From an uncultured Rikenellaceae bacterium (lineage in GTDB: Bacteria > Bacteroidota > Bacteroidia > Bacteroidales > VadinHA17), in the NCBI GenBank assembly GCA_964535035.1, contig CAZHRV010000118.1, positions 943 through 64,942 on the forward strand: a stretch of DNA of 64,000 bases, written 5' to 3'. How positions within the stretch are numbered: position 1 is the first letter of the stretch; every line of letters starts with the position of its first letter. Under the pieces are notes generated by a model, which had not been told where the DNA came from, made no database searches, and saw nothing but the letters and a program-made list of their open reading frames with translations. The position numbers and the translations under genes are program-made. Shown piece after piece: positions 14,765 through 39,366 of the stretch.

Positions 14765-15856
14765 ATGAAGAGCTTTAATATTCTATTGTTATTTATTATC
14801 CCTTTCCTGCCAATTTCCGATAATCAAAAAGAAAAGGCGGGTGTGCGGGTAAGTAAAAAGGTACTGGGGAATCACAATGGCAGTGAAGTATATCTTTTTA
14901 CACTGATAAATAAAGCAGGAAATGTTCTGAAGCTGACAAACTATGGAGCAAAGATCTTAAGGATTGAAGTTCCCGATAAAAATGGTGTCAGGGATAATAT
15001 TACCCTGGGATCAGAGACGTTTGAATCCATTACAAAAGGTGATCCTTATGGAGGCGCGATTGTTGGAAGGTATGCAAACAGAATAGCAAATGGGAAGTTT
15101 ATTCTCGACGGCGTCGAATATAATCTGCCGGTAAACAATAGGCCAAACACTCTGCACGGAGGCCGCAACGGATGGTTCTCCAAAGTATGGAATGCAGAGA
15201 TACCTGAAAATAAAAAACAGCCGGCAGTTATATTCACATACTTAAGTCCAGATATGGAAGAGGGTTTCCCCGCTACAGTTAAGATCGAAGTAACCTATAC
15301 GTGGACAGATAAAAATGAAATAATAATTGATTATGCTGCATCCGCTGATAAAAGGACTGTAATAAATGTTACAAATCATGCTTATTTCAACCTTCACGGA
15401 GCAGGTAAAGGTTATATATTTGACCATATTCTCACGATAAAAGCTTTAGCCTTTACTCCATTTGATGAATATAAGATTCCGACAGGGGAACTCCGTCCGG
15501 TGAAAGGAACACCATTTGATTTTACTGTTCCGCGTCCAATTGGTGAAAGAATCGGGGATACTTATGACAATGCGGTAATCAGCGGATATGATCATAATTA
15601 TATTCTTGACAACAAGGGAAAGGTTGATGTTACCGTGTATGATCCTGAAAGCGGCCGAATAATGGAAGTTTTGACCGATCAGCCGGGCCTGCAGTTTTTT
15701 TCCGGCAATAAATCAGCAAATACAAGATCAGGTTTTGCTCTTGAAACGCAACATTTCCCTGATAGTCCCAATCATCCGGATTTTCCAACGACAATCTTAA
15801 ATCCGGGTGAACAATCCAAATCAAGAACCATCTACAGATTTTCAGTAAAAAAATAA
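14765..15856 (+). CDS. galM: Aldose 1-epimerase (mutarotase) with N-terminal hydrophobic leader
   Basis: NRIANGKFILDGVEYNLPVNNRPNTLHGG, VTNHAYFNL and FALETQHFPDSPN are canonical GalM motifs. The leader is MKSFNILLLFIIPFLPIS. Confidence 0.9.
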   Translation: MKSFNILLLFIIPFLPISDNQKEKAGVRVSKKVLGNHNGSEVYLFTLINKAGNVLKLTNYGAKILRIEVPDKNGVRDNITLGSETFESITKGDPYGGAIVGRYANRIANGKFILDGVEYNLPVNNRPNTLHGGRNGWFSKVWNAEIPENKKQPAVIFTYLSPDMEEGFPATVKIEVTYTWTDKNEIIIDYAASADKRTVINVTNHAYFNLHGAGKGYIFDHILTIKALAFTPFDEYKIPTGELRPVKGTPFDFTVPRPIGERIGDTYDNAVISGYDHNYILDNKGKVDVTVYDPESGRIMEVLTDQPGLQFFSGNKSANTRSGFALETQHFPDSPNHPDFPTTILNPGEQSKSRTIYRFSVKK

Positions 15857-15882: not shown

Positions 15883-17151
15883 ATGAACAGAAATAAATTT
15901 TTAAAAACGATGGCAGCAACTGTCCCGGCTGCCACTGTGGTTCCGAACTTTGGTCGTCTTGCTCAAACCGAGTCAGGTAAAGTCAGGATAACCGACGTAA
16001 AATGTATGCGTGTACAAATAGGCAGGGGTCATGTTTTACCTCTGGTAAAAATTGAAACGGATGCCGGTGTATACGGTATTGGTGAATGTCATCACGATGT
16101 TACCGGGTTGGGATCTAAGGATGTGGTTCTGAATGCATTCAAACAGATTCTTGTCAAGCAGGATCCGTTCGACATAGCACGCCTCACTGAACAAATGAAA
16201 TTCCGTGTATCATATCTCGGGGGTAATGGAGGGATTGGTATGCATGCCGTTACCGGATGTGAAGTTGCCCTGTGGGATCTGGTAGGAAAGCTGCTTGGTA
16301 TGCCACTGCGTAAAATACTCGGAGGAGGCTGTTTCACTGACCGTGTAAGGGCCTATCTGACCAGCCAGCCCAGAAATATGCTTGATCCTGCTTCCTGTAA
16401 GGAATGGGTCGATTACCTTAAGCAATCGGTTCAGAAATGGACAGCAGCAAAACCTTTCAGGATATCAAGACGTCCCGGAGGTGAAGCACTAAATCGTCGA
16501 CTTACTTCCAGTGAATTGGAAACGAATATTCACGCATATTCTAATTTAAGAGAAGCGGCAGGCAACGAATTTGAAATAATTGTGCATTGCCACTGGGAAT
16601 TCGGATTTTTTGATGCCCTGAGTTTCGCTAAAGCTTTGGAACCGATAAGGCCATGGTGGATCGAAGATCCCATGCCGATAAATTATGTAGACACCTGGGC
16701 TAAACTTACCGCAGCCTCTCCGGTTCCCATTCTCTGTGGTGAAAACCTTTATACTCTGTACGATTTTCTTCCATTTATAACTAACCAGGCAGTTCATATG
16801 GTTGAGATAGATATTTCTATGACGGGTGGTTTACTGGAAGCGAAAAAGATTGCAACCCTGGCAAATGCATATTATATGCCTGTAGCTACACATAATGTTA
16901 TGGGACCAATAGCTACTATTGCTTCAGCTAATTGTGCTGCCACTATGCTTGATTTTATCGGACATGAAAGCTATGATTATAAGCCAGATTCCCGCGATGG
17001 TCATAGCGGGTGGGAAACCCTGATAGAATATGACAGAGAGATAATACAGGACGGGTATATTCAACTCTCCGACAAGCCAGGTCTCGGACTCGATCTGAAT
17101 AAAGATGTTGCGATGAAATATCTGGTGGAAGGAGAGAAATGGTGGGGATAA
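15883..17151 (+). CDS. Enolase-superfamily protein (mandelate racemase / galactonate dehydratase-like), degenerate Tat-like leader
   Basis: YGIGEC...ALWDL..K..G.P....LGG is the N-terminal capping-domain pattern, and the barrel motifs WWIEDP and CGENLY are present. The leader is MNRNKFLKTMAATVPAATVV. Confidence 0.8.
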   Translation: MNRNKFLKTMAATVPAATVVPNFGRLAQTESGKVRITDVKCMRVQIGRGHVLPLVKIETDAGVYGIGECHHDVTGLGSKDVVLNAFKQILVKQDPFDIARLTEQMKFRVSYLGGNGGIGMHAVTGCEVALWDLVGKLLGMPLRKILGGGCFTDRVRAYLTSQPRNMLDPASCKEWVDYLKQSVQKWTAAKPFRISRRPGGEALNRRLTSSELETNIHAYSNLREAAGNEFEIIVHCHWEFGFFDALSFAKALEPIRPWWIEDPMPINYVDTWAKLTAASPVPILCGENLYTLYDFLPFITNQAVHMVEIDISMTGGLLEAKKIATLANAYYMPVATHNVMGPIATIASANCAATMLDFIGHESYDYKPDSRDGHSGWETLIEYDREIIQDGYIQLSDKPGLGLDLNKDVAMKYLVEGEKWWG

Positions 17152-17183
17152 ATTGTAAGTAAACTTTTTAAATCGGTTATAAT

Positions 17184-19685
17184 ATGAAAAAGTATCTGTT
17201 ATTTACTGCAGCTTTGATGTTTTGTTATTTGATTTCCGGGCAGCAAGCCCAGAAAGTAGACATCAACATTAAATCCGGTACGCCTGTTGGAATCATTGAT
17301 CCCAAAATTTACGGCCAGCTTTTTGAACACATTTATTTCTCAGCCGACGGTGGATTATGGGGTGAAATGATCGCAGAGCGGTCATTTGAGCCGGAACAGT
17401 ATCCTGGTATCTCCCCTCGGGCTGGATTTTTTGACGGATGGTATGATGATGGCAACAACATACTACATTCCCCGACCCTCTTTGAGCAGCCTATTCCCAT
17501 GGTAACTGCCAATGGTGACATTTATATTATAAGCACCGATATAAAATGGCGAGCATATAAATTTGCCAGACATATGTGGAGTGGTGGTTATGCAGATATG
17601 AGAGTGGAATTTAAGAGTATGTCCGATGGTAAAAGTTATCGTTTCCGCCTGCACGATCCGCAGTATGAATCTGCAAATCCATTTAGTCAGCAGCAGCTGC
17701 CCAAGGTAGCCACATTTGCTATAGAACGGGATACTGTGACCGAACGTCAGGGACGAGACGGCAAACCCATGACAATGACTGTCTGGAAACCTGTCACGAG
17801 CGTTGAAGTGAAACCCGGCCAGATTGATGTTGCAGAAGCATGGCATAATCTGCGTATCGAATGTAATGGTAAAAATGTCAAAGTATTCTGGGATGGCAAA
17901 CAAGTACTGAAATTCAGTGATCTTGAAAACACGGAAACAAAGAACGAAATAGCTTTCGGCGTAAATTATACTGAAGCACAGTTTAAGAACATCAAAATTA
18001 CTTCAGCAGACGGAAAGAAGGTTTTTCTGGAAGGCATGCCGGAGGTAGTTAAGAATCCGCCCGTGGCTCCGCAGTGGAAATCTTTTAGCAGTGGTGAATT
18101 TGAGATGGTGAAAGGTAATGCAGTAAATATGGAATACTCGCAGAAGATAACGGCTGGAACAGAAACTTCAGGCATTTCACAGGGACCATTCTCAATTAAG
18201 AAAGGTGAAATATATATAGGTACGATATGGGCAAAGGGCGATGGGAATGCAGAACTGACTATCGCTTTTTCTTCCGGGGGCAAAAATATTGCTTCACAGG
18301 TTGTTGGTAAACCTGGTGCGGATTGGAAGAAATATGAATTTTCCCTTGAAGGAGGACAATTCGAAGGTGATGCCGACCTCGCGATAGGCATAAAAGGAGG
18401 CAGCCTTCAGGTTGACCAGGTCAGTATGATGTCGCGTTCCGCAATCAACCTTGGAGGTTTCAGACCTGACATCTACAAAGCTGTTCGGGAACTTGCGCCG
18501 ACTAACCTCCGCTGGCCGGGAGGTGGCTATGCCGCACAATACAGCTGGAAGTGGGGTGTTGGTCCTCAGGAAGAGCGTATCCGCTGGCCTCATTATATGT
18601 GGATGAACTACGATCAGAATAGTTTCGGCACAGATGAATTTATTCAACTCTGCCGCCAGATTGATTCTGAACCGGTTATTGTCGTACGTATCGGGTTTGA
18701 CAGGCCTGAATCGGAACATGCTGTGATATTACAGGAAGCCTGCGACTGGGTCGCCTATTGTAACGAACCGGCCACTGGAAAATGGGGAAGTATAAGGGCA
18801 GCTAACGGACACCCGGAACCGTATAACGTAAAGTATTGGGAGATAGACAACGAGATGTGGGAGTACGGAATTGAAAAATACGAAGCTGCGATAAGAGAAT
18901 TTTCTACAGCGATGCGTAAAGTCGATCCGAATATAAAAATTATTGTTTGTGGCGGATTTGGGAATACTACCGATAAAGACTTCCTTGATCGTTCGGGCAG
19001 TTATTTTGATTATATGAGTCTTCATCATTATGAGGGTGAAAACGGATATGCAACCGGTCCGGCAAGATTGGCTGCTCAGTATGATCAGTATGCCGGAATG
19101 ATTGCCAGTTGCCCCAATCCGAATATAAAGCTTTATATCTCAGAATGGAACCTGCAGAGTATCGACTGGCGTACCGGTCTTTTTGCCGGAGGATTTTTGA
19201 ATATATGTGAACAACGTCAGGTCGTTGAAATGGGGGCTGCGGCGCTCTTTATCCGCCGAACCGACGCTCCGGAATGGAACAACGCTTTCATAAATTTTGA
19301 TTATAAAGGAGTTTTTGTGGCGCCAAATTACCTCGTGACCAAACTGTGGCACGACAATTTTTCGAAATATCGTCTTGCCTTTACCGGGGGAACAGGGAAT
19401 ATTAGTATCAGCACTACTCTTTCGGAAAACGGAGCAAATGTCATAGTGAAAATAGTAAATCCCACGGAGAATATTTACGACCTGACAATCGAGGGAGATT
19501 GGAAGTTGCTGACAGGCGCCGGATACAAATTTATCGCTCCGGATTCGCTCAGCACGGCTAATTCTATGGAATCGCCCAATGCTATTTCTGTTGAAAAGAA
19601 GGAAATCACTCCTGTCAATAATACCGTCACTTTGACCGTAGCGCCGTTTTCGGCCGGAGTCCTTACCCTGACAAAAGGATTTTAA
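17184..19685 (+). CDS. GH51-type alpha-L-arabinofuranosidase with N-terminal beta-sandwich/CBM-like extensions
   Basis: NLRWPGGGYAAQYSWKWGVGP, YWEIDNEMW (acid/base Glu region) and YISEWN (nucleophile region) fit GH51. A signal peptide is present (MKKYLLFTAALMFCYLISG). Confidence 0.75.
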   Translation: MKKYLLFTAALMFCYLISGQQAQKVDINIKSGTPVGIIDPKIYGQLFEHIYFSADGGLWGEMIAERSFEPEQYPGISPRAGFFDGWYDDGNNILHSPTLFEQPIPMVTANGDIYIISTDIKWRAYKFARHMWSGGYADMRVEFKSMSDGKSYRFRLHDPQYESANPFSQQQLPKVATFAIERDTVTERQGRDGKPMTMTVWKPVTSVEVKPGQIDVAEAWHNLRIECNGKNVKVFWDGKQVLKFSDLENTETKNEIAFGVNYTEAQFKNIKITSADGKKVFLEGMPEVVKNPPVAPQWKSFSSGEFEMVKGNAVNMEYSQKITAGTETSGISQGPFSIKKGEIYIGTIWAKGDGNAELTIAFSSGGKNIASQVVGKPGADWKKYEFSLEGGQFEGDADLAIGIKGGSLQVDQVSMMSRSAINLGGFRPDIYKAVRELAPTNLRWPGGGYAAQYSWKWGVGPQEERIRWPHYMWMNYDQNSFGTDEFIQLCRQIDSEPVIVVRIGFDRPESEHAVILQEACDWVAYCNEPATGKWGSIRAANGHPEPYNVKYWEIDNEMWEYGIEKYEAAIREFSTAMRKVDPNIKIIVCGGFGNTTDKDFLDRSGSYFDYMSLHHYEGENGYATGPARLAAQYDQYAGMIASCPNPNIKLYISEWNLQSIDWRTGLFAGGFLNICEQRQVVEMGAAALFIRRTDAPEWNNAFINFDYKGVFVAPNYLVTKLWHDNFSKYRLAFTGGTGNISISTTLSENGANVIVKIVNPTENIYDLTIEGDWKLLTGAGYKFIAPDSLSTANSMESPNAISVEKKEITPVNNTVTLTVAPFSAGVLTLTKGF

Positions 19686-19690
19686 AACAA

Positions 19691-19732
19691 AGCAGACACC
19701 TGTTTTATATGTTTAATAACATGGTGTCTGCT
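19691..19732. terminator. Bidirectional hairpin between convergent genes
   Basis: A perfect 10-bp stem pairs AGCAGACACC (19691-19700) with GGTGTCTGCT (19723-19732). It is flanked by A-rich sequence on the left and T-rich sequence on the right. Confidence 0.6.
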
Positions 19733-19781
19733 TATTATAATATCTTTAATTTAAACATTTATATATAGAATACAACCTTAA

Positions 19782-21134
19782 TTACCACTCGCAAACGGAG
19801 CCATCCGATGCAAAGACCCTTCCCATAGGTACTGTTCCTCCAAAAGGATATTTCTTAAATGCATCCTCGCTAAGGTCGAAGCCAAGACCCGGTTTTTCCG
19901 AAAGCGGGAATCTTCCGTTTACCATACGCTGAGCAGGAAATCCTAACCATTCTTCCCAAACTTTTTCATTTAATCCGGGTTCAACTCCACTGCAGACCTC
20001 CTGTACCAGGAAATTGGGCATACATGCATCAGTATTGATTGCTGCCAGGCCTCCTATCGGACCTTCACAGTTGTGAGGCGCCATCGAAAGGCCTGAAGCA
20101 GCTGCCATTGCACCTATCTTCCAGAGGGCAGTTATACCACCGCAATGGCTGGCATCTGGTTGAAGGATATCTACAATACCCTGTTCTATGAGCTCCCTGA
20201 ATCCGTATGATGCTACAAGTCTTTCTCCTGTGGCAATCGGTGTCGTTGAGCGTTTTGCAATCCTGGCCAGTGCTTTATTATTTTCAGGTGGAGTTAATTC
20301 CTCTACAAACAAGAGATTCAGAGGTTCTATCTCTTTGACAATAATCGACGCAACGCTGGGGCTTGTTTTGGCATGAAAATCACATGCTATATCGATATCC
20401 GGACCTAATGCTTCACGTATCATTTGAAGTTGTTTAATAGCCCTGTCTATCTTAGCATGTGTATCTATCCATTCATAAGCAGGAGCAGGCAATCCTGTTT
20501 TGAATGCAGTGACTCCATCTCTCTCTGCTGTTTCTCTTAATTTAATAAGTTCCTCCCTGGTACCTCCCCTTGCATGGTAGTATCCTCGTACTCCTCTTGG
20601 ATCAACCGGTCCTCCAAGTAGTTTATAAACTGGTAAGCCAAGTATCTTACCCCTGATATCCCATAATGCCTGGTCAATACCTGAAATAGCTGAACCAATT
20701 ACAGGACCGGCACGGTAGAATGCATGTACATACATAGACTGCCAGTGATGTTCTACCTGCATCGGATCGCTGCCAATAACAAAATCTTTCATATCATTGA
20801 CACATGCCATAGCAGCACCTGCCTTTCCTTCAAGTGTGGCTTCTCCCCAGCCTGTTACACCGGCATTAGTTTCAAGCTTAACAAATACATAAGGCCTGTC
20901 TGATACAGGAGTAATCGAAACACCAAAAACTTTCAGGTTAGTGATCCTCACCTTTGACAGAACATGATCAAACTGTCCGCGCTGCCATGGTGTTTTTGGG
21001 GCAGACAATACCTGCTGCTGTTGCTGTAAAGGTGATGCATCGCACCCGCAATCGCTGTCAGATTCCGGGAAGTTATTACCGGCAAGGAGGGCTCCGGTAG
21101 CGCCAATCCCATATAAGAAATCTCTTCTTTTCAT
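19782..21134 (-). CDS. D-galactonate/mannonate-dehydratase-like enolase-superfamily enzyme with twin-arginine signal
   Basis: The leader is MKRRDFLYGIGATGALLAG. Canonical DgoD-type motifs are CDFHAKT (Asp ligand plus His), LFVEELTP and IATGERLV (Glu ligands at +26/+26 spacing), LQPD and APHNC (Asp-His dyad). Confidence 0.85.
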   Translation of the reverse strand: MKRRDFLYGIGATGALLAGNNFPESDSDCGCDASPLQQQQQVLSAPKTPWQRGQFDHVLSKVRITNLKVFGVSITPVSDRPYVFVKLETNAGVTGWGEATLEGKAGAAMACVNDMKDFVIGSDPMQVEHHWQSMYVHAFYRAGPVIGSAISGIDQALWDIRGKILGLPVYKLLGGPVDPRGVRGYYHARGGTREELIKLRETAERDGVTAFKTGLPAPAYEWIDTHAKIDRAIKQLQMIREALGPDIDIACDFHAKTSPSVASIIVKEIEPLNLLFVEELTPPENNKALARIAKRSTTPIATGERLVASYGFRELIEQGIVDILQPDASHCGGITALWKIGAMAAASGLSMAPHNCEGPIGGLAAINTDACMPNFLVQEVCSGVEPGLNEKVWEEWLGFPAQRMVNGRFPLSEKPGLGFDLSEDAFKKYPFGGTVPMGRVFASDGSVCEW

Positions 21135-22363
21135 AATGTTACCTCCTTATATTTTTCAAGACTTTGCTCATTTACATTTATCCCCAGTCCGGGACCAACA
21201 GGCAAAACTGCAAAACCTTCCTTGATCACTTCAACAGGCACAGTGGTCAATGCCAGCCTCATGGCCTGATCTTCTTGTGCCTCCGGGAAGGATATCTCCT
21301 GGATAAAGAAGTTTGGAATTGATGCTGCCAGATGCAATGATGCTGCTGTTCCTATTGGTCCGCCATTATGGTTAGGGCCAACGGTAGCGTAATTGACTTC
21401 AGCTATTGTTGACATTTTTTTTATCTGCGAAATACCGTTTAAACCAATGTCGGGACGAATGATATCCACGGCATCTTCTCTAAACAGATCCTGTACCTCG
21501 CTTCCTTCTGTTATTTTTTTACCTGCACCGACACAGGTTACACTTCCTCCCGAAATCTTTTTGAAAGCACCCAGTCCGGCAGGAAGACACGGCTCATCGA
21601 ACCATAATAGGTGATATTTTTCTATAGCTGCACTTATCATCTGTGCATCACCTGGTGTGAGAAGGTTGGACCCGTCAAGAACAAAATCAACATCCTGACC
21701 TCCTGCAGCACGAAGAGCTTCAATTCTTTTTACAATAGACTGGACATAAGCCTGTCCCTGGTTTCTGTAAACAACAGGCGTTATGGGAACTTTAAATGCC
21801 ATATATCCGGCACTTTTTGCCCTGTTCATTGCACTTATCAAAGCTGTATCTGTATCACCCATAATAGGAGCAAGCACCCGGGCCCTGTGACGTGTGGGAC
21901 CTCCAAGGACCTGGAATATGGGCGCTTTGCACAACTTGCCCACAACATCGAGCATTGCTATATTCAATGCTGCACGCGCTGTAGGACATTTGGCTAATAA
22001 TGATGCTGTAACATCAAATGATGTAACCGGTTTCCCAAGTATTATAGTCTTTGCCTCTGCATATTCGGCCGGCCACAAAGGTGCACACTCTCCAAAACCA
22101 GTTAATCCGGAAGCAGTCTGGATTTTTATCACAGTATATGCCCTCTTTGATATTGGTTCCCTTAGCATCCAGCCCCTGACATCTTTAATTGCCAGGTCGC
22201 CTTCCGCCGATGACGGAATATCTCCAGGCCTTACCGATGCCTCCAGCTTCGCTCTTCGCTGCCGGACAACATCTGGCAATGCTGAACCTCCATAAGCTGT
22301 TGCAGTGCCCCCGGCATTTATTTTGAATGATGCCGGTTGAATAGTTTTTTTTATTTTAGTCAT
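21131..22363 (-). CDS. Divergent enolase-superfamily (MR/MLE-like) protein
   Basis: GLTGFGEC...AALNIAMLDVVGKLCKAPIFQVLGG is the capping-domain pattern, and the barrel motifs VLDGSN, LWFDEP and IRPD are present. Its stop overlaps the start of the downstream paralogue by 4 nt. Confidence 0.7.
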   Translation of the reverse strand: MTKIKKTIQPASFKINAGGTATAYGGSALPDVVRQRRAKLEASVRPGDIPSSAEGDLAIKDVRGWMLREPISKRAYTVIKIQTASGLTGFGECAPLWPAEYAEAKTIILGKPVTSFDVTASLLAKCPTARAALNIAMLDVVGKLCKAPIFQVLGGPTRHRARVLAPIMGDTDTALISAMNRAKSAGYMAFKVPITPVVYRNQGQAYVQSIVKRIEALRAAGGQDVDFVLDGSNLLTPGDAQMISAAIEKYHLLWFDEPCLPAGLGAFKKISGGSVTCVGAGKKITEGSEVQDLFREDAVDIIRPDIGLNGISQIKKMSTIAEVNYATVGPNHNGGPIGTAASLHLAASIPNFFIQEISFPEAQEDQAMRLALTTVPVEVIKEGFAVLPVGPGLGINVNEQSLEKYKEVTL

Positions 22364-23080: not shown

Positions 23081-25469
<2,389 letters not shown>

Positions 25470-39195: not shown

Positions 39196-39366
39196 ATGGG
39201 AAAGATTGGTCTAACCGAGATAATACTGGTACTGCTTATTATCGTTCTGCTTTTTGGCGGTCGTAAGATTCCCGAACTGTTCAAAGGTATAGGTCAGGGA
39301 ATGAAGGAGTTTAAGAAAGCCTCAAAAATTGATGGCGAGGACGATAAAGAAAAGGAAAAGGTATAA
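39196..39366 (+). CDS. tatA: Twin-arginine translocase subunit TatA/E (56 aa; absent from the ORF track because it is <60 aa)
   Basis: It translates to MGKIGLTEIILVLLIIVLLFGGRKIPELFKGIGQGMKEFKKASKIDGEDDKEKEKV. This shows the TM helix, hinge FGG.K.PE, amphipathic helix G..G....FKK and acidic tail. Confidence 0.85.
   Translation: MGKIGLTEIILVLLIIVLLFGGRKIPELFKGIGQGMKEFKKASKIDGEDDKEKEKV

Follow-up and report, generated by a model that had tools for sequence, protein, structure and literature searches.

A candidate Tat-exported DgoD-type dehydratase and its remodelled paralogous partner in a glycan-degradation island of an uncultured Rikenellaceae bacterium

Described systems and the three paralogues

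In textbooks, the enolase-superfamily enzymes that dehydrate acid sugars are cytoplasmic, and pathway reconstructions place their reaction steps inside the cell, after uptake of the substrate. Here, we analyze three members of this superfamily, which are encoded in a 64,000-nucleotide stretch of DNA (the window) from an uncultured Rikenellaceae bacterium of the phylum Bacteroidota (assembly GCA_964535035.1, contig CAZHRV010000118.1): E1 (15883-17151, plus strand, 422 residues), E2 (19782-21134, minus strand, 450 residues), and E3 (21131-22363, minus strand, 410 residues). The original prediction, made from the letters of the sequence, had taken them for three paralogues that may process sugar acids in the periplasm, and all three open reading frames are present with the N-termini it gave, each with the Pfam domains MR_MLE_N and MR_MLE_C, which agrees with the N-terminal capping domain and modified TIM barrel of the MR subgroup. 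We propose that E2 is exported through twin-arginine translocation (Tat) and is active in the periplasm, that E3 is its co-exported, non-catalytic or ligand-binding partner, and that E1 belongs to an ancestrally periplasmic family but is itself of uncertain export; taken as a whole, this proposal has, in our judgment, somewhat better than even chances of being right.

The Escherichia coli galactonate dehydratase DgoD resembles E2 in its two-domain fold, in the seven catalytic and ligand positions, and in the C-terminus, ...SV(A/C)EW. The two proteins share 36% identity. In contrast to DgoD, E2 has 60 additional N-terminal residues (a Tat leader, a CxC motif, and a linker), lies outside any dgoK/dgoA/dgoT context, and is accompanied by an obligatory paralogous partner gene. 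The closest solved relative of E2 is PRK14017 of Ralstonia pickettii (EFI-500653; structures 3rr1 and 3rra; E-value 4.5e-75), and that of E1 is the MR/MLE-like protein of Rubrobacter xylanophilus (2qq6; E-value 1e-57), in which Asp stands in place of the E1 His (IDMH, compared with VHCH in E1). Both 3rr1 and 2qq6 are also among the top fold matches of E3. None of these structures is described as a heteromer, and in none is there space for a leader ahead of the catalytic domain.

Adjacent paralogues of this fold have a precedent in E. coli GudD and GudX, glucarate dehydratase and its neighboring paralogue, one of which is of low or unknown activity. Unlike E3 and E2, both of these proteins are cytoplasmic and GudX keeps its catalytic residues; to our knowledge, neither export nor an obligatory heteromer has been proposed for them. 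For the export of folded complexes, HybOC and DmsAB are known examples of Tat hitchhiking. Hitchhiking is an established mode of Tat transport (PMC4273604, PMC10924467), and is also used by E. coli PaoABC (PMC4273604). In these complexes a single subunit bears the functional twin-arginine (RR) leader and its partner is encoded next to it, as E3 is beside E2. However, the known hitchhikers are cofactor-containing redox enzymes whose subunits are unrelated to each other, while E2 and E3 are paralogues of one non-redox fold that would form a complex. Finally, in compartmentalized oxidative sugar pathways, such as the periplasmic glucose and xylose oxidation of Pseudomonas, sugar acids are made outside the cytoplasm, and genes for a GMC dehydrogenase and a Tat-signal small subunit are found close to the E3-E2 pair in 11-12 loci. 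The dehydratase step of those pathways is cytoplasmic, whereas the dehydratase described here has an export signal. A literature search found no paper on exported or heteromeric enolase-superfamily enzymes. The present system is new in that the E3 and E2 genes overlap and occur as a pair almost universally, the two leaders decay asymmetrically, E2 has a CxC motif, the E1 family has an invariant His ligand, and another phylum has members of all three families within a single operon.

E2 and its twin-arginine leader

In the phylogenetic tree, the E1, E2, and E3 families are each monophyletic with 100% support, and E2 joins E. coli DgoD (support 96/69). Against the NCBIfam equivalog model of galactonate dehydratase, NF010624 (cut-off 311 bits), E2 scores 349.0 bits, a small margin, with 60 extra residues falling outside the model; E1 (177.8 bits) and E3 (155.7 bits) score below the cut-off. 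The catalytic positions were read from an alignment to DgoD of E. coli K-12 and from a 363-sequence alignment of the three families, with the residue roles (metal ligands, acid, and dyad) given in the literature for DgoD. E2 retains D183, H185, E209, E235, D258, H285, and E310 of DgoD, and these seven positions are invariant in all 120 E2 homologues. The three of them that bind metal, D183, E209, and E235, are D252, E278, and E304 in the numbering of E2. The three-carboxylate ligand set of the MR subgroup, at the ends of barrel strands 3, 4, and 5, is thereby present in E2, and is broken in E1 by the His at ligand 1 and in E3 at ligands 2 and 3; the H285/D258 dyad and the acid His185 are found in both E2 and E1. 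As judged from these residues, E2 is a catalytically complete DgoD-type enzyme, and its DgoD-like site suggests an aldonate substrate such as galactonate.

The twin-arginine signal peptide of E2, MKRRDFLYGIGATGALLAG, is encoded at 21078-21134 (minus strand); it is followed by NNFPESDSDCGCDASPLQQQQQ, and SDSDCGCDASPLQQQQQ lies downstream of it. The motif K-R-R-D-F-L-Y fits an n-region of the S/T-R-R-x-F-L-K type, and the score against TIGR01409 is 16.2, compared with 16.7. The uncharged h-region after the motif spans 18 residues in E2 and 16 in the corresponding leader of E1, while E3 has none. An RR leader is present in 94 of 100 full-length E2 homologues, which come from Bacteroidota, Acidobacteriota, and Verrucomicrobiota. 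The alignment of this family shows no variation at M1, R3, and F6, and conservation of at least 90% at R4, C29, and C31. The top 120 homologues are 406-459 residues long, as compared with the 382 residues of E. coli DgoD, and E2 itself is about 70% identical to proteins of Bryobacteraceae. In the AlphaFold2 (AF2) model of E2, residues 1-44 are disordered, with pLDDT values below 50.

Could the leaders be relics or start-codon artefacts, so that all three enzymes stay in the cytoplasm and process sugar acids after their uptake, like the classical DgoD and ManD? The characterized relatives are all cytoplasmic, as is well established, the closest solved relatives (3rr1 and 2qq6) begin at the catalytic domain, and some gene callers start E1 at its internal Met10. 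In E2, however, the leader is conserved residue by residue over three phyla, and there is no internal Met within the first 100 residues (none before about 108), so that an internal ATG start cannot strip the leader; a start-codon artefact was therefore rejected for E2. The position of Met10 in E1 is occupied by Leu in 58 of 68 distant homologues. Moreover, the surroundings are unlike the cytoplasmic dgoRKADT type: no gene for a kinase, an aldolase, or an inner-membrane transporter lies near E2, and the neighboring genes all encode exported proteins. We regard this cytoplasmic explanation as highly improbable for the three enzymes together. The possibility of reassigned start codons had been raised with the original prediction; the leader of E2 withstands it, while that of E1 is less secure on account of Met10. 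On these sequence patterns, export of E2 to the periplasm by Tat is likely.

Just past the signal peptide, E2 bears a DCGCD motif (residues 28-32; 21039-21053, minus strand). A CxC or CC follows the h-region within a few residues in 95 of the 100 full-length homologues. The acidobacterial orthologues read AxA-(D/G)D-C-x-C, with the CxC two residues past the AxA site, and in these members it would sit at the mature N-terminus. The motif was also considered as a lipobox and rejected, because the Cys is preceded by D/G-D rather than by L-[AS]-[GA], and because the AxA site comes before it. A disulfide, metal binding, or a redox function is a possible role.

E3 as the conserved partner of E2

The pairing of E3 with E2 was followed through 80 loci that encode an E2 homologue and come from Bacteroidales, Flavobacteriaceae, Bryobacteraceae, Solibacteraceae, Acidobacteriaceae, and metagenome-assembled genomes (MAGs) of Verrucomicrobia. 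A tblastn search found an E3 homologue directly upstream of E2 on the same strand in 74 of the 80, and overall the adjacency holds in about 78: two apparent exceptions are frameshifted or truncated E3 genes, and the remaining ones are cut by contig ends. In the window, the stop codon of E3 and the start codon of E2 overlap as ATGA (21131-21134, minus strand), which agrees with the translational coupling noted before, and in most of 75 loci the distance from stop to start is -4 or -1 nucleotides. The two proteins have evolved at different rates, with a mean p-distance of 0.48 for E3 and 0.25 for E2; E3 thus changes twice as fast, and the distances are correlated (r=0.78).

The same earlier reading had counted E3 as a third dehydratase, which is not supported. 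At the position of DgoD D183, Asp is kept in 110 of 120 E3 homologues. The acid H185 is replaced by Gly, Ala, Glu, or Asn in the family, and by Ser in the window protein. At E209 (ligand 2) the family has Asn or Asp, with Asp in the window protein, and at E235 (ligand 3) it has Arg in 87, Ser in 14, and Lys in 10 of the 120, with Lys in the window protein. The dyad Asp, D258, is present in 79 of 120, and the dyad His, H285, is displaced by one position (P-x-H). Finally, E310 is Gln in 101 of 120, and Glu in the window protein. These substitutions, like the His of E1 described below, had been remarked upon earlier and are confirmed by the family alignment. E3 is probably a non-catalytic, remodelled partner of E2, with the acid His replaced, ligand 3 turned into Lys or Arg, and the dyad His shifted. 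According to its AF2 model (pLDDT 84.8), E3 keeps an intact enolase-superfamily fold, and Foldseek aligns it with the MR-subgroup structures 2qq6, 3rcy, 5olc, and 3rr1 at TM scores of 0.75-0.87. A recent duplication of E2 was rejected as its origin: E3 is 27% identical to E2, and its stem of 2.08 substitutions per site marks it, by the tree, as an old and fast-evolving lineage.

The N-terminal extension of E3 (57 residues; 22193-22363, minus strand) lacks an h-region or any other hydrophobic stretch, just as had been predicted, and contains the motif RQRRAKL (22244-22264). In an alignment sampled from homologues that possess the extension, R36, R37, and L40 are conserved at 90% or more, and RR-x-(R/K)-L is nearly invariant. 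The AF2 model places residues 29-43 in a helix, with a pLDDT of about 60, and leaves residues 1-29 disordered. The RR at residues 36-37 lies outside a signal-peptide context and does not form a Tat motif. Among 75 loci, 28 have an E3 whose RR is followed by 13 or more uncharged residues, and 12 have one with 10-12 such residues after the RR. In another 19 there is an RR but no h-region (the class of the window protein), and 16 lack the RR; seven of these 16 have essentially no extension, and one further such case was seen besides. The two leaders have thus fared asymmetrically, with the RR leader of E2 kept and that of E3 decayed or gone in many lineages. This is the pattern expected of a folded complex exported on the signal of E2, and we put the co-export of E3 with E2 at about an even chance.

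A different role for E3 deserves consideration here, in which E2 is exported alone and E3 is either a cytoplasmic escort or inhibitor that acts before export, in the manner of Tat proofreading chaperones, or an unrelated binding protein. The missing h-region of the window E3 fits this role, its conserved RRxKL helix could serve something other than targeting, and the remodelled site, which keeps D, E+1, K/R, and D, suggests ligand binding over pure decay. However, the RR with at least 13 uncharged residues in 28 of the 75 loci would be a plausible Tat signal of its own, in a family that would be ancestrally periplasmic; the Tat chaperones known so far are small proteins that bear no relation to the substrates they serve; and the strict overlap of stop and start codons fits stoichiometric assembly. 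We therefore consider an escort function unlikely, and retain E3 as the candidate co-exported partner.

How common is this pair among the Bacteroidota? A sample of 400 genomes from this phylum yielded no E3 homologue at a threshold of E≤1e-60, and the pair is therefore rare in it. The relatives of the pair are mostly acidobacterial. It may have been acquired horizontally, possibly from Acidobacteriota.

E1, genomic context, and a proposed route

E1 represents a separate family. At the position of DgoD D183, the first metal ligand, it has the His of VHCH (16582-16593, plus strand). This His is present in all 120 E1 homologues, in which the other catalytic residues are retained and invariant, and the register was confirmed by a HMMER alignment to 2qq6 (IDMH). 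The His ligand suggests a transition-metal site rather than one for Mg2+, and such a site would fit the loading of metal in the cytoplasm ahead of Tat export.

The original prediction had claimed Tat-type leaders for both E2 and E1. That of E2 is canonical, while that of E1 is a degenerate descendant of a canonical RR leader. The N-terminus of E1 reads MNRNKFLKTMAATVPAATVV, with the leader MNRNKFLKTMAATVPAATVVP at 15883-15945 (plus strand), and its motif, N-R-N-K-F-L-K, lacks the canonical pair of arginines. Distant homologues have the textbook xRRxFLKxL, with the second Arg in 63 of the 66 that possess a residue there; counted by the FLK register, E1 homologues have RR in 64 cases, RN in 14, and RD in 9. 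Within the close clade, the second position is Asn in 12, Arg in 11, Asp in 9, and Ser in 9, and R3, F6, P15, and P21 stay conserved. The E1 family would accordingly be ancestrally Tat-exported, with the second Arg lost in the lineage of the window. The same genome encodes 21 other RRxF[LIVM] leaders, and E1 has its sole single-Arg leader with a Tat-like, weakly hydrophobic h-region. Since the second Arg is missing and Tat tolerates even conservative R-to-K changes poorly (Palmer and Stansfeld 2020, PMC7317946), export of E1 is doubtful, and we rate it as slightly short of an even chance. The idea of periplasmic dehydratases is thereby strengthened for E2, by its leader conserved over phyla and its exported neighbors, and weakened for E1, by the lost Arg and a possible Met10 start.

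These leaders bear on a further alternative, that each protein is exported independently, with the RR motif of E3 and the single-Arg leader of E1 acting as weak Tat signals, and with no hitchhiking. The RR of E3 is nearly invariant, the rest of the E1 leader is under purifying selection at the four residues named above, and E1 homologues with N-R-N leaders stand directly behind SusC/SusD. On the other hand, the window E3 is charged right after the RR and has no hydrophobic core, some of its orthologues lack the extension altogether, the poor tolerance of Tat for R-to-K changes applies here as well (PMC7317946), and the 21 other Tat-like leaders of the genome all keep RR. Independent export of all three is, in our view, rather improbable, and we continue with the export of E3 on the signal of E2.

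The three genes lie in a block (9587-33183) in which all 13 other genes bear Sec, lipoprotein, or Tat signals. They include a 912-residue Tat protein, an AlsD-like protein, GH8, GalM, GH51 with DUF1080, GH43, an esterase, a GH140-like protein, a beta-lactamase-like protein, GH43 with F5/8, and a carboxylesterase. The exported aldose 1-epimerase GalM (14765-15856, plus strand; Pfam Aldose_epim, signal peptide) ends 26 nucleotides upstream of E1. Between E1 and E2 lies the gene for an exported GH51-like arabinofuranosidase with a DUF1080/3-keto-disaccharide hydrolase domain (17184-19685, plus strand; Pfam, NCBIfam, and signal peptide). No transporter, kinase, aldolase, or cytoplasmic catabolic enzyme is encoded in the block, which is, by its predicted signals, an island of exported enzymes without a SusC/SusD of its own. 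The export signals of the GalM, AlsD-like, and 912-residue proteins were among the earlier claims and proved correct, as did a separate tatA gene (39196-39366, plus strand; 56 residues); tatC is found on contig C81 of the same genome (229.5 bits).

Two further MR_MLE proteins with RR leaders are encoded in this genome. On contig C248 (13-11416), a partial SusC and a SusD precede a 509-residue MR_MLE protein, whose leader is SRDRRNFLKKAALGGIALGG; behind it come the permease, binding lipoprotein, and ATPase of an ABC sugar importer, and an FGGY kinase. This order spells out, as read from the predicted functions, outer-membrane import, a periplasmic enzyme, inner-membrane import, and a cytoplasmic kinase; by this reading, the topology of a periplasmic enolase-superfamily enzyme occurs at a second locus of this genome. 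Contig C274 (3270-4466) encodes the other, a very divergent MR_MLE protein (tree branch length 4.8) with the canonical Tat leader MDRREFIRLAGAGAAAGIIA.

In other genomes, the neighbors over the 80 loci include a TonB-dependent receptor (25), a DUF1080/3-keto-disaccharide hydrolase (14), a GMC oxidoreductase (12), and a Tat-signal Gluconate_2-dh3 small subunit (11). One locus has the order SusC-SusD-E3-E2, followed by another MR_MLE gene, an SBF transporter, and a KDPG-type aldolase. In an Acidobacteriaceae MAG (L059:3333-13151), a single strand carries a TonB-dependent receptor, E3, E2, an E1-like gene (with the His ligand, HCHWEY), a ManD-like gene, and a UxuA-like gene, and the E2-like, E1-like, ManD-like, and UxuA-like proteins all have canonical RR leaders. 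The last of these is a TIM barrel of the UxuA mannonate dehydratase type, with an unrelated fold that is also Tat-leadered. In a Bacteroidales MAG (L086:117-8269), an ECF sigma factor, a FecR anti-sigma factor, a SusC with an STN domain, and a SusD are followed by an E1 homologue (leader MNRNNFIK), which is the sole enzyme of this minimal polysaccharide utilization locus (PUL). In a Bryobacteraceae MAG (L088:1022-9278), two tandem E1-family genes of 418 residues each precede five consecutive PF00756 esterase genes; the window likewise has a PF00756 esterase (24201-25469).

Folding and export: E2 would be a DgoD-type dehydratase of acid sugars, active and dependent on metal, and would fold in the cytoplasm, where this metal is presumably loaded. 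Tat would then carry it to the periplasm, where its substrate would be a sugar acid that comes from plant-glycan fragments after their import.

Partner assembly: E3, translated in step with E2, would assemble with it into a hetero-oligomer and cross the membrane on the signal peptide of E2. Hitchhiking of this kind would leave the RR leader of E3 free to decay, down to the bare RRxKL helix seen here. E1, in this lineage, may be exported inefficiently or no longer.

In its widest form, which we advance tentatively, the pair would make up an enzyme that is the first heteromer in the enolase superfamily, exported folded by Tat and with the metal site of E3 filled by Lys or Arg. Together with Tat enzymes of the E1, ManD, and UxuA types, it would constitute a pathway of periplasmic sugar-acid dehydration coupled to SusCD/TonB import, in Acidobacteriota and some Bacteroidota.

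Several observations weigh against the proposed route. Among the best 150 cluster representatives, all of 435 residues or fewer, there is no E3-E2 fusion and thus no Rosetta-stone support, and we know of no heteromeric enolase-superfamily enzyme. In 40 of the 75 loci, E3 has RR with a short uncharged stretch and could be exported alone, and simple decay does not explain why RR is nearly invariant in those E3 lineages that lack an h-region. The R-N leader of E1, unique in the genome, is probably a poor Tat signal. Direct action on the products of the glycoside hydrolases, as in the original prediction, is not supported in that form: aldonate dehydratases require an oxidized sugar, and with a galactonate-like substrate the released sugar would first have to be oxidized. 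The block in the window contains no sugar-oxidizing enzyme, and the GMC dehydrogenase/Tat small-subunit partner is absent or degraded in this genome.

The automatic names of these proteins, "galactonate dehydratase" and "L-Ala-D/L-Glu epimerase-like", conceal their leaders, their pairing, and the changes in their sites. The pair of an enzyme and a pseudoenzyme offers a tractable case for the evolution of paralogous heteromers, and for the decay of redundant signal peptides under hitchhiking. The Tat route would give a rationale for metal loading before export, above all for the E1 family with its His ligand. If the enzymes are indeed periplasmic, this would explain PULs in which an MR_MLE protein is the sole "enzyme", and would call for a revision of the models of carbon flow in soil Acidobacteriota and in Bacteroidota that degrade glycans.

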